Notes: generated from the letters alone by a model not told the origin. A stretch of 64,000 nt of DNA from Gammaproteobacteria bacterium (GCA_965222615.1 CBDCUI010000007.1:64001-128000), one strand, 5' to 3'; positions 48,876-61,400 are shown, counted from the first letter of the stretch. Numbers and translations: made by a program.

Positions 48876-49469
48876 ATGTGGGAACCGAGATTAGAATTCT
48901 CTGAAACCAAGCATCTATGTAAAGTAACCATCAATCAAAACAACCAGCCCATGACCTTCAGCGAAGTTTTAGAGAGTTGGAAGTCCAATGCTGAGTTTAG
49001 AGAATTTTACATTTTGTTACTCAGCGACATGCCTTATGCAGCAGTGTTTTGGGAAATCCCGCCAATCACAAAAGCGACGATCTCAAAGCCTTACGAATTT
49101 GTTGCAGCGGATAGTCCAAGCCTTGTAGGTGTCCCACCCAATTCAACCGCGTTTGAACAATATTTTAAAACTGCAACAAACCATGAAACCGTTGTTAGCT
49201 TTGCAAACTTAGGTAACGATGCTTGGCTAATCGCGCCATGCCCCATAGACTCGCATAACATATACACACACTTAGTTAAGTTCCTACGCGAAGCCCCAAA
49301 CGAACAATGCCATGAATTTTTTTGTAAACTAGGAATGGAAATTGAGAATAAATTAAGCGATGAACCATTATGGATCAGCACCTCCGGCCTAGGCATCTAC
49401 TGGCTCCACGCAAGACTCGATTCCTATCCGAAGTACTATACCTATTCACCTTACAAAACATTTAAATAG
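48876..49469 (+). CDS. Conserved hypothetical protein (DUF6940-like)
   Basis: FANLGNDA.LIAP, WISTSGLGIYWLHARLDSYPKYY. Confidence 0.65.
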   Translation: MWEPRLEFSETKHLCKVTINQNNQPMTFSEVLESWKSNAEFREFYILLLSDMPYAAVFWEIPPITKATISKPYEFVAADSPSLVGVPPNSTAFEQYFKTATNHETVVSFANLGNDAWLIAPCPIDSHNIYTHLVKFLREAPNEQCHEFFCKLGMEIENKLSDEPLWISTSGLGIYWLHARLDSYPKYYTYSPYKTFK

Positions 49470-49481
49470 CTTGTCCCAAAT

Positions 49482-49562
49482 CGCAAGAAGTGGCAGATAT
49501 GCTCCTGCAATTTCTGCATTCCCACCTTCCGTAGTGGTCGAACGTTCAGTTCATTAAATAAC
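49482..49562 (+). repeat. Partial copy of the RT-flanking repeat end, interrupted by a 48-nt palindromic insert
   Basis: CGCAAGAAGT[48 nt]GAACGTTCAGTTCATTAAATAAC versus CGCAAGAAGTGAACGTTCAGTTCATAAATAAC at 51108. Confidence 0.75.
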
Positions 49563-49719: not shown

Positions 49720-50283
49720 ATGAACGAAAACGGATCAAATTTTCCAATTTGGGTCAAATGGACTCATCTTGGGTTAGCTTTTTTTGGCATCATCGCATAC
49801 CTTACAGGCGAATTAGCAGAATACTCAAATAGCTATGGTTATTTGTTACATGCCTATTTAGGCATGACTCTATTACTGTTTCTAATAAGTAGATTCCTAT
49901 ATGGCTTCTTGGGTCAAAACATATACCGATTTTCTAATTGGTTCCCTTATAAGTTGTCATATTTAGTTTCGATTAAGGAGGATTTACAGGAACTCGCAAG
50001 GTTTAAGTTACCAAAGCGGCAAGACCATCGTGGCCTGGCTGGTTTAGTCCAAGCATTTGGATTGGTAATATTCAGCTGGATGGCCATTACTGGAACCATT
50101 ATGTTTGTTACTAATGCAAATGATGATTCCGCCCTGTCTGAGCTACACGAGGTAGGAGAAGGACTTATTCCTTTGTTTTTAGGACTTCATTTGGGAGCAG
50201 TTGCTCTACATGTGATTTCTGGCCACAATCTTTTATCCAAAATATTACCCACGCGTAACAAAAAGAAAGAAAGCACCACTTGA
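49720..50283 (+). CDS. Cytochrome b/b6-like membrane protein
   Basis: Four TM helices with heme His (WTH, LLHAYLG, ELHE, LHLGAV); AGGAG RBS. Confidence 0.85.
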   Translation: MNENGSNFPIWVKWTHLGLAFFGIIAYLTGELAEYSNSYGYLLHAYLGMTLLLFLISRFLYGFLGQNIYRFSNWFPYKLSYLVSIKEDLQELARFKLPKRQDHRGLAGLVQAFGLVIFSWMAITGTIMFVTNANDDSALSELHEVGEGLIPLFLGLHLGAVALHVISGHNLLSKILPTRNKKKESTT

Positions 50284-50753
50284 GTAATTGGCAGTCCTCT
50301 ATAAATTACATACCGGCTGTAGTGCTGGGGATTGCTAGTGCATTTTTCTTATATGACATTATTACTGATGTGATGAAAGGTAATGAGAGCACCACTCATT
50401 TAGTTATTGAAGGTTTTATATTTTTAGCAACCTCAGCTGTTCTCACTCATGAGGTGTTAAGAGTAATACAACTAAAAAAAAATTTAAGACAGGAACAAAA
50501 TAAAGTTGCACGACTCTCAGGTGAATTAAGTAGTGTTATTCAAAAAGATTTTAGAGACTGGAAGCTTACTGAGAGTGAAAAGGAAGTGGCCATCTTGCTA
50601 ATTAAAGGGTTATCGATGAATGAAATTGGGCAATTACGAGGTGTAAAAGAAAAGACCGTGCGTCAGCAAGCAACAAGTATCTATACAAAATCAAAGTGCC
50701 CAAATCGGCACGAATTAGCAGCTAAATTCATTGAGGATTTGCTAAATATATAA
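50280..50753 (+). CDS. Membrane-anchored LuxR-type HTH regulator
   Basis: Two N-terminal TM helices, then LTESEKEVAILLIKGLS..EI...R..KEKTVRQQ. Confidence 0.88.
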   Translation: MSNWQSSINYIPAVVLGIASAFFLYDIITDVMKGNESTTHLVIEGFIFLATSAVLTHEVLRVIQLKKNLRQEQNKVARLSGELSSVIQKDFRDWKLTESEKEVAILLIKGLSMNEIGQLRGVKEKTVRQQATSIYTKSKCPNRHELAAKFIEDLLNI

Positions 50754-50838
50754 ATCTCAATAAGCCCGCTATTGGCCGAATAGCAGACATTAACTATCAG
50801 CTTTGTAAATTACTACCAGTCTCAAACAGAATATATTA

Positions 50839-50940
50839 CTACTGATTCTTTTCTTTTTTCTTCTTAGCAACAAACATCCAAACCGTAATAACAAATCCTA
50901 CGAGTATGAGATAAATAGTCCACTCAATTATTTCAGCCAT
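50839..50940 (-). CDS. 33-aa single-TM peptide (below ORF-track cutoff)
   Basis: MAEIIEWTIYLILVGFVITVWMFVAKKKKEKNQ*, preceded by AGGAGGGGTT. Confidence 0.6.
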   Translation of the reverse strand: MAEIIEWTIYLILVGFVITVWMFVAKKKKEKNQ

Positions 50941-51107
50941 AACCCCTCCTCTTAGCTAAGGCATTACTTTAACATATTGCAAATTCTTCGATTAATACTA
51001 TTTCTCAATGATCAAATTAAAGAAAATGCTAGATGCTTGTTTTTGCAACGAAAAGGGATCAGGTCCTTTTTCCACTTTATAAAAAATTTGAGTAGTTTAC
51101 TCCAGAC

Positions 51108-51369
51108 CGCAAGAAGTGAACGTTCAGTTCATAAATAACATTCATCGGGTTTATTTGTTCATTTTCTTTGCTTGTCCAAAGCCTTAATTAAATGAACTAG
51201 GGGAACCAAAAGAAAAGACACCCTACCAACTTGTCCTTCGGATTCGTTCACGACATCGAGTAACGTTGGCCGGCATAATGACGCCATCCAGGCGCAACAT
51301 GCCTAAAACGACCATCCCTGGTCGTTTTACCTATTGTTCCTTTCGATGTCACTCACCAAGTTGGATGGG
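51108..51369 (+). repeat. Structured ~260-nt intergenic element, left copy
   Basis: Shares GCAAGAAG.GAACGTTCAG, GTTCATTTTCTTTGCTTGTCCAAAG and GAACCAAAAGAAA.GACACCC with the reverse complement of 53272-53519; nested stems with ATCC loops. Confidence 0.85.
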
Positions 51370-51554
51370 AGGATCTAAGAGCTGCTATATTTAGATTTCT
51401 ATGATCACTAATGACCCAAAAGCATACATAAACTAAATACAGTTTATTGTGAGTAATGAAGAAATATTTCTGAAAGGAAACCGGCTCAACGAGGCTGGAT
51501 AGTTTGATAAAGATTTATCAATGTTTTTAGAAGAACTAAATCTTCTTTTGTAGT

Positions 51555-53069
51555 ATGAACGATAAAGTTACAGAGCCTAAGTCAGTATTGAGTCTTTCGC
51601 ATGAAGAGGCGAAAGACTTTTTCCTAAAGCACGAAAGCTACTTCAATGCTGATTTGCCACCTTACTTCCGTTTTGACCAAATATTAAGCGAAGTCGCAAG
51701 TGAACTTGCCGAAAAACCTTTGAATGGGCTCATGGCAGATACCAAAGCTAAGGATTGCGATGGAGTAAACCATGTAATTATTTCCAATAAAGACGGAATG
51801 CTTTCATGGCGGCCTTTGGAGCTTATTCATCCAGTTCTATATGTAAACCTTGTGCGAGAAATGACGAGAGAGGATAAGTGGCAACAACTTAAAGATAGAT
51901 TTGCGCTGTTAAATGATAATGTTTTTATCAAGTGTCTTAGTATTCCTATTGTTGCCTCAAGTGATACTAAAGATCGTGCTGAGCAAGTTTCGCAATGGTG
52001 GCAGGAAGTAGAGCTTCAGTCTGTTGAATATTCCTTAGATTATGAGTATATGTTTGAGACGGATATTACAGATTGCTATGGCTCTATTTATACGCATTCG
52101 ATTGCGTGGGCAGTTGAAGGTAAAGAAAAGTTTAAGAAAAAAGAAAATCGTAACAACACTAGTTTATTAGGCGTGTTTATTGATAAGTCAATACAAGAAA
52201 TGCAGCATAGCCAGACCAATGGCATTCCTCAGGGCTCTGTTTTGATGGATTTTATTGCGGAGATATTGTTGGGCTATATTGATAATGAACTTTCCCAGAA
52301 GATAAACGAGCATGAGATCAGTAGCTATCGGATACTACGTTATAGAGATGATTATCGAATATTCGTTAATAATCCTGAAATGGGTGAGCGTATTCTAAAA
52401 TTATTATCTGAGGTTCTAACAGAATTAGGTCTGCGTTTAAACCCAAATAAAACAATATTCAGCGATGATGTTGTAAATGCGTCCGTCAAAGATGACAAAA
52501 AATCATGGTTAGCTAGTAAATCCTACCATAAAAACCTATTTAAGCATTGCTTGATTATTAAGAAGCACTCAGATCAATTTCCTAATTCAGGAAGCTTGGC
52601 AACAGCTTTGAGTAAATTCTATAAAAGGATTTTAAAACTTAAAGAACTAGATTTATCAGCTAAAGCAATTATCAGCACAGTGATTGATATTGCCTATAAA
52701 AATCCAAGAACATACCCAGTTAGTTTTGCGATTATAAGTAAATATATTTCACTAATGGATGATAAGGAAAAACTTCCATTAATTATGAAAATAAAAAAGA
52801 AGTTTACTAAGCTTCCTAATGTGGGTTATATGGAAGTTTGGTTTCAACGTTCAATTAAGGAAAAAATTAGTGAAGTTGAATTGAATGAGCCACTTTGCCG
52901 AGTTGTAAAAGGAGAGAAAGTAGTAATCTGGAATTCGGAATGGATTGGATCAAAAACACTTAAGAAAATTGTAGAATCAGTATCTGTAGTGGACAGTAAC
53001 AAATTGGCAGAGGCTGAGCCTGTGATTGATTCACTTGAGTTTGATTTATTTCCACAAGGTTCTGGGTAA
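51555..53069 (+). CDS. Reverse transcriptase of the UG/Abi (AbiK/Abi-P2/DRT-like) type with helical C-terminal domain
   Basis: DITDCYGSIYTHSIAWA, TNGIPQGS, RYRDDY, GLRLNPNKT; 504 aa; no maturase, Cas1 or retron VTG signature seen. Confidence 0.9.
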   Translation: MNDKVTEPKSVLSLSHEEAKDFFLKHESYFNADLPPYFRFDQILSEVASELAEKPLNGLMADTKAKDCDGVNHVIISNKDGMLSWRPLELIHPVLYVNLVREMTREDKWQQLKDRFALLNDNVFIKCLSIPIVASSDTKDRAEQVSQWWQEVELQSVEYSLDYEYMFETDITDCYGSIYTHSIAWAVEGKEKFKKKENRNNTSLLGVFIDKSIQEMQHSQTNGIPQGSVLMDFIAEILLGYIDNELSQKINEHEISSYRILRYRDDYRIFVNNPEMGERILKLLSEVLTELGLRLNPNKTIFSDDVVNASVKDDKKSWLASKSYHKNLFKHCLIIKKHSDQFPNSGSLATALSKFYKRILKLKELDLSAKAIISTVIDIAYKNPRTYPVSFAIISKYISLMDDKEKLPLIMKIKKKFTKLPNVGYMEVWFQRSIKEKISEVELNEPLCRVVKGEKVVIWNSEWIGSKTLKKIVESVSVVDSNKLAEAEPVIDSLEFDLFPQGSG

Positions 53070-53271
53070 ATTTCAATATTGTAACGGATAAGTTATTTCG
53101 TGATTACGGAAGACCTGCTCGAACTAGCTCACGATTAATTCATAAGCTCTAGTTGAATGACTGCACTCCTCCTTATTCCATATTTTAAGTTGAAGTGTTG
53201 CTTCCACCAATTGGGGTCGCCGCCGTAAGCAGACATCCTGTACGTGCAAGTTCAGAGTCTTTCTTAGACTT

Positions 53272-53519
53272 CCCATTATTTACTTGACGAGCAAGCAGAT
53301 AAGACTGCTGACAAATGAATATGGATATTCATTTGAGGCACGCAACGCATGGATGCGTTTCGGGCCGACAGCAAAGTCGTTCTGTGCAGCGAGTGAACCC
53401 TGTAAGGGCAAGTAAATTTGGGTGTCCTTTCTTTTGGTTCGTTTTCTTTGGACAAGCAAAGAAAATGAACAACCTAATTTGATGACTTTAAATTAATGCT
53501 CTGAACGTTCCCTTCTTGC
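53272..53519 (-). repeat. Structured ~250-nt intergenic element, right copy (inverted)
   Basis: Reverse complement aligns with 51108-51369; hairpin GTTCGTTTTCTTTG-GACAAG-CAAAGAAAATGAAC at 53437-53470. Confidence 0.85.
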
Positions 53520-53544: not shown

Positions 53545-53568
53545 GGATTGCTTCGCTATGCTCGCAAT
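53545..53568 (+). repeat. REP-like palindrome (left part), split by IS insertion
   Basis: GGATTGCTTCGCTATGCTCGCAAT continues as GAC after the IS; the reconstructed empty site is GATTGCTTCG...CTCGCAATGAC. Confidence 0.65.
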
Positions 53569-54649
53569 TGTATAGGTTACGTAAATCGTTGATGAAAATC
53601 ACTCATCCGATAATCTTAGATAAGTGTCTAAGCAACTCGGAACAGGAGGAGAAGCCATCATGCGAATCAACAGTCGAGATAGCACGTTAAAGAAGAACTA
53701 CATTCAGAAATATCAATATCTAATAGCTGAATACGAACAAGTTAAAGCCAAGCAGCACCCGCAGTATCGCCGGGTCAAAGACTTCTATGCGGCCCACGGT
53801 ACTTGTCCTCAAACGTTTTTAAAATACTACGCACGCTATCGTCAAAGTGGTAATGTGGTTTCTTTATTACCCGCCAAACGTGGGCCGAAATGGCGTACTC
53901 GACGCACTTGTCCGCAGATCGAAGCGCAAGTCCTCAAAGCGCGTGCGCAAGGCAATAATCGCTATGAGATTCATCTTATCTTACAAGCGAAATTAGGTCA
54001 GAATACGCCCTCGCCATCATGTATCTATCAGATCTTCAAACGTCATGGAGTGAACCGATTAAGGCCTGCTATGCAAGAAGAAAAACGCCGCATTATTCGA
54101 GAAAAGGCAGGCGAGCTCGCCCATATAGACTGTCATCACTTGAGTAAGGATATGATTGCCAATGAATCCAAGCGTCGCTATTTAGTGTGTGTGGTGGATG
54201 CCTACAGTCGTATTGCCTGGGCGCAAGTGGTCGAGGATATTCAAAGTCTAACGGTGATGTTTGCTACGCTGCGTTGTTTCAACTATTTATCGAGTCAATA
54301 TGGGATTCAGTTTGCAGAAGTCCTGACAGATAATGGACCGGAGTTCGGAGTCAAAGAGTCGAAACAAAAACCCAAACATGCCTTTGAGCGCATGTTACTA
54401 GAGATGGGCATCAAACATCGCTATACAAGACCTTATCGTCCACAAACCAATGGCAAAGTGGAACGCTTTTGGAGAACCTTGAACGAAGATTTGATTGATG
54501 GTACTTACTTTACCTCAGAAAAACACTTTGCAGATGAACTGAGTGCCTACTTAATTTATTACAATGAAGCGAGAGCCCATCAAGGTATTGATGGCAAAAC
54601 TCCCGCTTCCATGCTACAAAATCTATCAACGAATTAGATAACACATACA
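53569..54649 (+). mobile_element. IS481-family insertion sequence (1081 bp)
   Basis: TGT...ACA ends; 25-bp imperfect IRs (TGTATAGGTTACGTAAATCGTTGAT / TGTATGTGTTATCTAATTCGTTGAT, 20/25); 5-bp direct repeat GCAAT at 53564-53568 and 54650-54654. Confidence 0.92.
53660..54637 (+). CDS. IS481-family DDE transposase (rve integrase core)
   Basis: AGGAGG RBS before ATG 53660; HID, LTDNGPEF, PQTNGKVERF; stop lies inside right IR. Confidence 0.93.
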   Translation: MRINSRDSTLKKNYIQKYQYLIAEYEQVKAKQHPQYRRVKDFYAAHGTCPQTFLKYYARYRQSGNVVSLLPAKRGPKWRTRRTCPQIEAQVLKARAQGNNRYEIHLILQAKLGQNTPSPSCIYQIFKRHGVNRLRPAMQEEKRRIIREKAGELAHIDCHHLSKDMIANESKRRYLVCVVDAYSRIAWAQVVEDIQSLTVMFATLRCFNYLSSQYGIQFAEVLTDNGPEFGVKESKQKPKHAFERMLLEMGIKHRYTRPYRPQTNGKVERFWRTLNEDLIDGTYFTSEKHFADELSAYLIYYNEARAHQGIDGKTPASMLQNLSTN

Positions 54650-54707
54650 GCAATGACAAGTACGGTGGGTTACCAAGTATTGTATATAACGACAAGATAA
54701 ACGAAGT

Positions 54708-55949
54708 TTATCTTGCAAAAGCCGGTCTATCCTTATTCAACCCCATCGCATGCGTCATAAAAAACTTTTTAACCGGTTGAATTTTATCTGCTGCATTTAA
54801 TGCAACATTACGTGCAGTGACAACTGGTTTTGCGGTAGATCCAAATGCTGCCACAAATGCATCCATGGCTTTTTGCATAATTTGTGTCTCCCCTACCCGG
54901 GCACGTTCATATTTGCGCAACACTTTATAACTACCGATATCACGCTCCCTATTAATAGATGAGCGTGCCAATACATCTGCCAGCACTGCGGCATCGGTAA
55001 ACCCAAGATTGGCCCCTTGGCCGGCTAGTGGGTGTATGGCATGTGCAGCATCACCTACTAATGCGATACGTGGTTGCACCATGCAATCGGCATGACCCGA
55101 CACCAACGGAAAACCTGCACACTTGGAACGTAAAGTAATTTCACCCAGTTTGGATTCACTGGCTTGGGCTAAGGCATCTGCAAATTTATGCTCATTCAAC
55201 TTCATGAGTTCATCGGCATAATCATCACTTACCGACCACACAATGGAACACTCCCCATTGTTTAACGGTAATAACGCCAATGGACCGGTATTTAAAAATC
55301 GTTGCCATGCAGTATCTTCATGTGCACGTTCGGTTTGTACACGTGCGACTAGACCTAGCTGTTGATAACTTTTTTCGGTGTAGGAAATATCTGCAAGACT
55401 ACGAACCGTGGAACGATGCCCGTCTGCTCCTACGAGTAATTTAGCAATTATGACTTGATCGTTATCAAGTATGACTTCTACATTGTCCGCATGCGTTATC
55501 ACTTTGTTGATGGTTTTATTTAAGTACCATTTAATATTGGGTTGTTGTTGCAAAACCTCATGTAAACTAGACTGAATCACGATGTTCTCAACGATGTACC
55601 CAAGATTGGCTTGGTTTACGTCGATGGCATTGAAACTAATGTTTGCATTACCGGCTTCATCCCAAACATGCATATTTGTATAAGGCGTAATACGCTTTGA
55701 CGCCATAGCAGACCATGCATCGATATATTCAAAAATGGCTTTAGATCCAGGACTTACTGCAGTGACCCTTGCTTCCCACTCTTGTTGTGAATCAAATGTA
55801 TGTGGTTCTGCGCGATCGATAATAGCAAGTGTTTTGCCTTGTTTAGCTAACAGGTTCGCAAGCGTAAGACCTACCATGCCGGCTCCTACGATAACTACAT
55901 CAACAGTTAGGTGCTCAGAAGCCAAAAGAAGCACCTCTATATAAACCAA
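54708..55949 (-). CDS. ubiI: UbiI/VisC-type FAD-dependent ubiquinone biosynthesis hydroxylase
   Basis: GAGMVG, GADG, GDAAHAIHPLAGQGANLG; downstream of ubiH. Confidence 0.85.
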   Translation of the reverse strand: MVYIEVLLLASEHLTVDVVIVGAGMVGLTLANLLAKQGKTLAIIDRAEPHTFDSQQEWEARVTAVSPGSKAIFEYIDAWSAMASKRITPYTNMHVWDEAGNANISFNAIDVNQANLGYIVENIVIQSSLHEVLQQQPNIKWYLNKTINKVITHADNVEVILDNDQVIIAKLLVGADGHRSTVRSLADISYTEKSYQQLGLVARVQTERAHEDTAWQRFLNTGPLALLPLNNGECSIVWSVSDDYADELMKLNEHKFADALAQASESKLGEITLRSKCAGFPLVSGHADCMVQPRIALVGDAAHAIHPLAGQGANLGFTDAAVLADVLARSSINRERDIGSYKVLRKYERARVGETQIMQKAMDAFVAAFGSTAKPVVTARNVALNAADKIQPVKKFFMTHAMGLNKDRPAFAR

Positions 55950-60578: not shown

Positions 60579-60926
60579 AAAAAATAAAATTTTTCAAATT
60601 TTTTTTTTCATTTAAAAACATAAAATGTATTTTAAACATTGCTGCTGTTTTACTTTTTTGCGCAATATTTTTATAAAATTAGGCTAAATTCACTAAAAAA
60701 ACAGCGAATTCTTGTTGTTATGTTAAATATTTAACTATAAAACAGGTTTTATACATCATCACTTTCCAATTTTTTTTATTTTATAAACGCAAATTTTTAA
60801 AAAAAATTTAAAAACATTCTCGATAGAAAGTTTAAAAAACATTACAAAAAAACTAGTATTTATTTAGTAAATGTATATACTCTGGCGCGTCTATAACTCA
60901 ACGTTTAATGTTTGGAGGGAGTATTG

Positions 60927-61400
60927 ATGGCCATCAAACGTAAAGCTACCACCAAAAGGAAAGCTAAACGTCGCACTACTAAGCGTAAGGCGACAAGACG
61001 TAAATCTACGGCTAAACGCAGAACGGCTAAGCGTAAAACAGCGAAGCGTAAGACCAAACGCAAAACCAAGCGTAAAGTTAAGCGTAAGACCAAGCGTAAA
61101 GCTAAGCGCAAAACCAAGCGTAAGACCAAACGCAAGACGAAGCGTAAAGCGAAGCGTAAGACCAAGCGCAAAACTAAGCGTAAAGCGAAGCGTAAGACCA
61201 AGCGTAAAGCGAAGCGTAAGACCAAGCGCAAAACTAAGCGTAAAGCGAAGCGTAAGACCAAACGCAAAACCAAGCGTAAAGCGAAGCGCAAGACCAAACG
61301 CAAAACCAAGCGTAAAGCGAAGCGCAAGACAACCAAGCGCAAAGCGAAGCGTAAGACGAAGCGTCGTACAACGAAGCGTAAAGCTAAACGTCGTAGATAG
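60927..61400 (+). CDS. Histone H1/protamine-like basic repeat protein
   Basis: GGAGG RBS before ATG 60927; 157 aa, 109 K+R, no D/E; followed by terminator. Confidence 0.85.
   Translation: MAIKRKATTKRKAKRRTTKRKATRRKSTAKRRTAKRKTAKRKTKRKTKRKVKRKTKRKAKRKTKRKTKRKTKRKAKRKTKRKTKRKAKRKTKRKAKRKTKRKTKRKAKRKTKRKTKRKAKRKTKRKTKRKAKRKTTKRKAKRKTKRRTTKRKAKRRR
61044..61331 (+). repeat. 24 tandem 12-bp units encoding KRK(T/A/V)
   Basis: AAGCGTAAAGCG / AAGCGTAAGACC / AAGCGCAAAACT units with synonymous variation and a partial 36-bp higher-order period. Confidence 0.92.

Follow-up and report, generated by a model that had tools for sequence, protein, structure and literature searches.

An Abi-P2 polymerase gene, probably a recent arrival, between two inverted and likely resident TwoAYGGAY repeats of a gammaproteobacterium

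Repeats of the REP, BIME and REPIN type are mosaic, extragenic elements that lie at gene 3' ends and between convergent genes, attract insertion sequences and form inverted doublets. The repeat described here shares all of these features with them, but it is much longer and branched. For the TwoAYGGAY motif (Rfam RF01731; Weinberg 2010, PMC2864571), a 2026 preprint (Li et al., bioRxiv 10.64898/2026.09.22.753630) describes an extended form in Pseudomonadota that carries a 5' array of 5-6-nt repeats and is multi-copy, with 68.4% of the pairs being divergent doublets (median 249 bp, grouping limit 2 kb). On the side of the enzyme, Abi-P2 of the E. coli P2-like prophage EC30 (PDB 7R08) has been found to prime DNA synthesis in vitro from its own Tyr61, without a template (Figiel et al. 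2022, PMC9508834). In case of DRT2, DRT3 and DRT9, a UG/Abi RT lies beside a structured non-coding stretch, as at the locus described here, but their RNA is described as conserved beside most homologues and as needed for defence. The survey by Mestre et al. (2022, PMC9226505) describes ncRNAs for UG2, UG3+UG8, UG28 and UG27; AbiP2 is not among the groups it names in this context, and it allows that further UG/Abi groups may have ncRNAs.

The window, i.e. the whole stretch of 64,000 nt that was analysed (GCA_965222615.1, CBDCUI010000007.1:64001-128000), contains a gap between two convergent host genes that is occupied as follows, with positions counted from the first letter of the window:

48876..49469, plus strand: DUF6940 gene (Pfam PF22086), the left host gene; an orthologue lies at the same place in relative G001, and the left elements face its 3' end
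49483..49555, no strand assigned: terminus-only repeat copy with two extra hairpins, 14 nt past the DUF6940 stop; a similar variant occurs in G002 (L176)
49720..50753, plus strand: cytochrome b561 and LuxR module; 5 other family genomes have it at different loci, there without the long element
50762..50790, no strand assigned: PAL28, a 28-bp palindrome (19.7 bits), which bounds the b561/LuxR module on the right, as it also does in G437 and G433
50839..50940, minus strand: 33-aa peptide module, with PAL28 on both sides in G433 and on one side in G022
51073..51108, plus strand: decayed duplicate of the DUF6940 3' end (last seven codons) with spacer, 25/36 identical, directly before L
51109..51369, minus strand: element L, extended TwoAYGGAY of subfamily 1, folded strand antisense to the RT gene; 36.2 bits against RF01731
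51401..51429, no strand assigned: worn PAL28 between L and the RT gene (13.2 bits)
51555..53069, plus strand: RT gene for an Abi-P2 family protein-primed DNA polymerase of 504 aa, with Y37, D170 and YRDD at 263-266
53209..53236, minus strand: broken PAL28 between the RT gene and R, one arm (15.8 bits), the full site not intact
53272..53519, plus strand: element R, extended TwoAYGGAY of subfamily 2, folded strand sense to the RT gene
53569..54649, plus strand: IS481-type insertion sequence of 1081 bp with TGT..ACA ends, a 5-bp duplication and a transposase gene at 53624-54637
54708..55949, minus strand: conserved FAD monooxygenase gene, the right host gene, whose 3' end is faced by R

The right host gene is presumably ubiI-like. 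As the original prediction had stated, the RT gene is the only long ORF between two inverted homologous elements, and in the ORF list it is the sole one of at least 70 aa there. Its assignment to the UG/Abi RTs proved correct as well: the PADLOC AbiP2 profile scores 643.5 bits (protein 7-501, profile 3-485 of 489), compared with only 177 bits for the runner-up family, and the match to the structure 7R08 is full-length (6-495, E 1.3e-88). Y37 corresponds to Tyr61 of the EC30 enzyme in an alignment that is gap-free from its start, and Y37, D170 and the YRDD at 263-266 are invariant across 36 homologue sequences. Judged by its sequence, the ORF is an intact Abi-P2 polymerase that has kept the catalytic aspartates and the priming tyrosine, and it would be predicted to act against phage by protein-primed, template-free DNA synthesis. 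RT and helical C-terminal region, priming tyrosine and YRDD are common to the EC30 enzyme and the one found here, and both are encoded by stand-alone genes in variable, horizontally acquired regions, but the gene described here is chromosomal with host genes on either side, whereas EC30 Abi-P2 resides in a prophage; the ORF list of 44-62 kb around the RT contains no prophage genes. The GC content of the RT gene is 0.356, as compared with about 0.39; the gene was not found in any of 55 other family genomes, and of the 399 other class genomes that were scored, one has it. We infer that it was gained recently by horizontal transfer. Ahead of its start ATG there is no clear ribosome-binding site, and the promoter scan gave 2 sites versus 8.9 in shuffles, i.e. 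fewer than expected. The closest Abi-P2 homologues with context (L036 and L037, 66%) adjoin genes that we take to be type I restriction-modification-like.

L and R are inverted relative to each other, with the termini GCAAGAAG.GAACGTTC pointing outward, and the predicted structured bodies are borne out by folds that are better than those of shuffles (z -2.4 for L and -3.7 for R) and by covariation of the two GGA-loop hairpins (double changes in 14 of 23 pairs, 0 of 500 shuffles), a count that has to be read in light of the structure being derived from the same alignment and the copies being related. The loops are AUGGAU and AUGGAU in R and AGGGAU and CUGGAU in L, and for 13 of 14 copies the better fold is that of the Rfam strand; the exception is L, where the two strands nearly tie. 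The motif thus has what characterizes TwoAYGGAY, namely adjacent GGAY-loop hairpins, a common basal stem and covariation. The match of L to RF01731 (E 0.0046, minus strand) lies below the gathering score of 43 bits; R itself has no Rfam match, while its subfamily sister C9:799874 matches RF01731 with 41.5 bits. Paralogues reach 44.0, 41.5, 41.1 and 39.0 bits, one of the five matches being above the 43-bit cut-off, and such matches occur in both subfamilies. The homology that had been claimed for the two elements is real, but they do not match closely, as the identity between L and R is just 66% (55% for the body alone), whereas each of them is 82-88% identical to copies at other sites. They fall into separate subfamilies with a split support of 100/100, each subfamily spans several genera, and L and R stem from these two old subfamilies.

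The genome of 3.1 Mb holds 19 repeat matches by profile search, about ten of which are full length, plus terminus-only copies, and this confirms the original caveat that the repeat might be a dispersed one. The bracket of two elements is likewise confirmed, although L and R are not the only copies in the gap, with a third terminus at 49483-49555. Repeat matches occur in 12 of 55 family genomes and in 17 of 150 class genomes; the terminus is family-specific, with matches in 2 of 401 class genomes, one of them being the genome described here. In phages the element is absent, six large plasmid-collection records contain only a 44-54-nt hairpin match, and the 17-nt terminus has two isolated matches in viral contigs, where the element body is absent. 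In G002, a mosaic copy that is longer and rich in GGA-loop hairpins (L216:260-640) points to a modular growth of the family. By sequence comparison, the flanking elements are identified as extended TwoAYGGAY repeats, copies of a known dispersed family. Multi-copy occurrence, 3' extension and divergent doublets, as given in the preprint, are all found here, and L and R are one such divergent doublet. The elements of the preprint and those described here both have a long basal stem with two GGA-loop hairpins as well as a 3' extension, and both include variants in which the 3' end carries additional GGA hairpins. The doublets of this genome differ in that they span 1-2 kb and enclose genes, compared with the median of 249 bp in the preprint, the main text of which does not mention the stop-codon polarity, the PAL28 neighbour or the triplex tract that we found here.

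This triplex-compatible tract lies at 53428-53470 in R. Of 59 copies examined, 37 were parsed, and in 28 of these the pyrimidine tract that precedes the TTTCTTTG..CAAAGAAAA hairpin is a perfect parallel match to the purine strand. The third strand co-varies with the purine strand across four purine variants, which is what a triplex of the pyrimidine motif calls for (Holder et al. 2015, PMC4666352), and the parallel register beats the direct-repeat register 22 to 4. The 3'-end hairpin is compatible with an intrastrand triplex of the pyrimidine motif. BoxC/PIT/TMECO have been described as potential intrastrand triplex elements that are tied to rearranged loci (Holder et al. 2015, PMC4666352). 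They resemble the tract in R in combining an intergenic hairpin with a third strand, but TMECO is a 37-nt stand-alone motif without strand bias, whereas the tract described here belongs to the parallel pyrimidine type and is one module of a 250-nt element whose polarity is strict.

What determines the orientation of the copies? In 18 of 20 copies of this genome and 20 of 22 family copies, the terminus points at the 3' end of the closest gene on the opposite strand, shared sites not being independent in these counts, and 10 of 16 termini sit 13-34 nt past a stop codon. The same polarity is seen in 12 of 15 low-GC class copies, a count that stands at 14 of 23 on all class loci and that was made after 13 of 28 loci had been dropped for high GC or short flanks. 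If two facing genes carry one repeat copy each, a divergent, terminus-outward doublet results, and divergent doublets would thus arise where genes converge, since the 3' terminus of the element faces host gene 3' ends. Only the IS481 intervenes between R and the ubiI-like stop, and L sits 14 nt after the decayed duplicate of the DUF6940 end, which matches the terminus spacing behind the live gene. This duplicate has 25 of 36 positions identical and transitions at 10 of the 11 mismatches (binomial p about 1e-6), and it suggests an entry of modules via recombination at gene end and terminus. Four of four multi-copy sites in the genome are inverted terminus-outward pairs that enclose lineage-specific genes, so that the architecture recurs with unrelated cargo. 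Three of these four are flanked by convergent genes, and so are pairs in G161 and G144; a site at C7:788-791 kb with co-directional genes and one site in G100 do not fit the polarity. The GC comparison of 5'-side and 3'-side neighbours is weak for the copies of this genome (14/20), absent in the family (13/22) and lower at class loci (10/14). A heterotypic left-arm/right-arm rule was rejected, as it relates to two pairs only and is not significant.

In G002, which belongs to another genus, the gap lacks the RT, but a terminus still follows each of the two flanking genes, at distances of 20 and 14 nt. These termini are the arms of a 57-nt palindrome at contig ends (L043 of C54, L217 of C85), the join of these contigs being deduced from synteny and from 41 nt of overlap in which one position differs. 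In G001, G006, G007 and G014 the gap is occupied by other cargo and lacks the element, and across five relatives the cargo between the convergent host genes differs. This palindrome at an RT-less site of a related genus and the terminus polarity to host gene 3' ends are the new observations of this study.

PAL28 is a family of 20 sites of at least 18 bits in the genome, compared with 0-1 in shuffles, and most of the sites are far from long elements. The b561/LuxR and peptide modules end at PAL28 elsewhere (G437, G433, G022), and the long element is absent at 7 of 7 loci of these modules in family genomes. As these neighbouring modules move alone and are bounded by PAL28, the gap is a stack of modules. 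Most simply, the RT would be one more palindrome-bounded module in it, although its own PAL28 borders are worn and few homologue loci have the palindrome (only 3 of 87, none on both sides). Sites of PAL28 lie 15-45 nt from the element 5' end in 5 of 22 copies of this genome and 5 of 22 family copies, far above the 0.8% of 998 control windows, which links PAL28 to the long element. PAL28 is often paired at a distance of 82-83 nt with two distinct cores (C7:818943-819053, C9:82089-82199 and C9:833017-833126 in G000, the genome described here), one site following a gene end and the other preceding a gene start. The 33-aa peptide ORF is membrane-like and has a strong ribosome-binding site. Further to the right in the window (60912-61400, minus strand), a histone-like Lys/Arg/Thr repeat protein of 162 aa is encoded, the length of which varies in relatives (at least 105 aa in G002).

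The insertion sequence to the right of R has five near-identical copies and is independent and recent. As part of the RT unit it is ruled out by its own ends and its own duplication, and the original statement that the unit contains no transposase therefore stands. No target duplication abuts the L-R pair, as had also been noted. All five IS481 copies lie at the same short motif in a small REP-like hairpin (here 53545-53570 and 54650-54660), and for three of the five the distance to an element copy is about 110 nt or less. A classification of the long repeat as an IS1182-type non-autonomous element or as a RAYT-linked REPIN was rejected for lack of a link to either enzyme: the one Y1_Tnp gene of the genome has no element in its 3.3-kb locus, and in the five genomes searched, IS1182 has no match in G000, while the two in G019 do not match the element model. 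As a guess, the long repeat may be moved by an enzyme that acts in trans on the folded single strand without target duplication; that this enzyme is of the HUH/RAYT type is conceivable but doubtful.

In comparison with G001, lineage-specific ORFs that do not belong to insertion sequences were found in 9 of 16 element-bearing intervals (p 0.0009 by stratified permutation); the comparison covers about 78% of G001, and 2 of 23 listed copies are without an orthologous interval. Such ORFs are present in 6 of 7 element-bearing co-directional gaps versus 70 of 1031 others, and in 3 of 9 element-bearing convergent gaps versus 50 of 159 without an element. After a recount, in which one site was moved to the convergent class and a tRNA-linked case and a fragment case were dropped, these numbers became 3 of 4 for co-directional gaps (p 0.001; p 0.02 against gaps of at least 60 nt) and 4 of 10 for convergent gaps (p 0.4). 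The cargo is mostly unrelated to defence: PADLOC matched 1 of 15 cargo proteins (OLD/GajA-like, at a copy abutting a tRNA gene), and Pfam gave no defence family for 12 further cargo proteins from other genomes. The gene concerned encodes a 593-aa OLD/GajA-like ATPase-TOPRIM protein beside a tRNA gene and an element (G000:C9:952324-954105, L016) and is a candidate defence gene. At L003, L218 and L354, i.e. in three genomes of two families, an element is found at the 3' end of one shared gene with different neighbouring cargo; we assume this gene to be fatty-acid-desaturase-like.

What do these data say about the relation of the repeats to the enzyme? A transcript of L or R could in principle template, prime or gate the RT as in DRT2, DRT3 and DRT9, and the original prediction had considered such an RNA partner, with a sense element upstream and an antisense one downstream. 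The strands are the reverse, with L being antisense and R sense. The covarying folds of both copies, the position of R in sense 200 nt past the RT stop and the openness of the survey to ncRNAs in more UG/Abi groups (PMC9226505) are in favour of an RNA partner, but the element is present at 0 of 99 Abi-P2 loci (nhmmer and a covariance model built here), in contrast to the RNAs of DRT2, DRT3 and DRT9. These loci were drawn from genomes, metagenomes and viral contigs after exclusion of 8 distant viral loci (L147-L154), 2 other distant ones (L020, L021) and own-genome and duplicate loci; they are 33-66% identical to the RT, with the 82% homologue P0002 lying outside the sample. The best element-model match among them (22.8 bits, L112) lies inside the RT frame. 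Rfam scans of RT-homologue loci found the element in 0 of 20 and 0 of 11, blastn found none either, and the flanks of the RT in the window gave only two weak matches of E 0.06, of which the one checked is within a gene. The scattered copies in this genome and their absence from the homologue loci are outcomes that the original prediction had named as speaking against it. Another open frame lies at most 250 nt upstream of the RT at 64 of 83 homologue loci. As Abi-P2 self-primes from its own tyrosine independently of a template in vitro (PMC9508834), as the ncRNAs of the survey are not assigned to AbiP2 (PMC9226505), and as the repeat is present in 12 family genomes without the RT, an RNA partner is highly improbable, L and R are likely not partners of the enzyme, and an RT-RNA system is unsupported. 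A local side effect on the RT would be compatible with resident repeats and does not compete with them: read-through from the RT gene into R would give the mRNA a folded 3' end, of which the CsrA-type GGA loops and the triplex could alter stability or translation. The sense orientation of the folded strand of R with its two AUGGAU loops, the presence of csrA in the genome and the triplex-compatible tract in most parsed copies agree with this idea, but a sense gene is found on that side in only 9 of 20 copies, and the binding of CsrA to TwoAYGGAY has been proposed as a hypothesis and not as a result (PMC4333381), so that we regard such regulation as improbable.

The other possibility considered originally, a non-autonomous composite cassette of which L and R are the ends that move the RT, draws on the outward termini, on the minimal two-terminus palindrome of G002, on the inverted pairs with cargo at all multi-copy sites and on both complete pairs joining one copy of each subfamily. 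It is weakened by the higher identity of each end to copies elsewhere and by their origin in different old subfamilies, by each end being tied to a host gene end and most copies being single, by the missing target duplication, by the RT unit being seen once and by neighbouring cargo that moves without long elements. Moreover, phages lack the element, the plasmid-collection records contain its hairpin only, and no joint that skips the RT was found in the contigs of four sequencing runs, which show presence only and of which the best run may be the source sample. A cassette is therefore very unlikely. A long element plus PAL28 could alternatively act as an integron-like docking site, with the element docking antisense behind a host stop codon and the integrase-free platform catching gene modules, including this Abi-P2. 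The adjacency of PAL28, the lineage-specific ORFs in element gaps, the reuse of the same host genes (desaturase, symporter) across genera with different cargo and the cargo-bearing divergent pairs of G161 and G100 point in this direction, but convergent gaps are not enriched, most PAL28 sites are away from long elements, four relatives hold cargo in the same gap without elements, one cargo case is tRNA-linked, the numbers are small and an enzyme search found none; we thus consider such a platform unlikely. As the repeat is dispersed and missing at the loci of RT relatives, the pairing likely reflects a hot spot of gene insertion, and the RT is probably a recently acquired one-gene Abi-P2 module in a repeat-marked gap, the flanking dispersed repeats being resident and likely not its partners. 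One repeat copy would have settled behind each of the two facing host genes, giving the inverted terminus-outward doublet; palindrome-bounded modules, the RT included, would then have inserted into this neutral gap. On the left, the entry of the b561/LuxR and peptide modules would have produced the duplicated gene end, and the IS481 would have arrived last. Resident repeats in a neutral gap do not predict from polarity the inverted pair with cargo between co-directional genes (C7:788-791 kb), nor do they account for the cargo-rich element-bearing co-directional gaps or for PAL28 being linked to the element 5' end, while the RT's own PAL28 borders are worn.

The original interpretation is therefore partly supported. 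As a system the locus is ordinary and not the undescribed one that had been proposed, since a known defence polymerase lies beside a known repeat in an insertion hot spot, but the side results are relevant to the nature of TwoAYGGAY elements. The polarity to host stop codons offers a simple, testable cause for their divergent doublets, and if the docking platform existed, this polarity rule would explain the published excess of such doublets. A triple helix at the TwoAYGGAY 3' end is suggested by the third strand and its covariation, and the link to PAL28 module borders opens a route to ask whether these repeats help to acquire accessory or defence genes.
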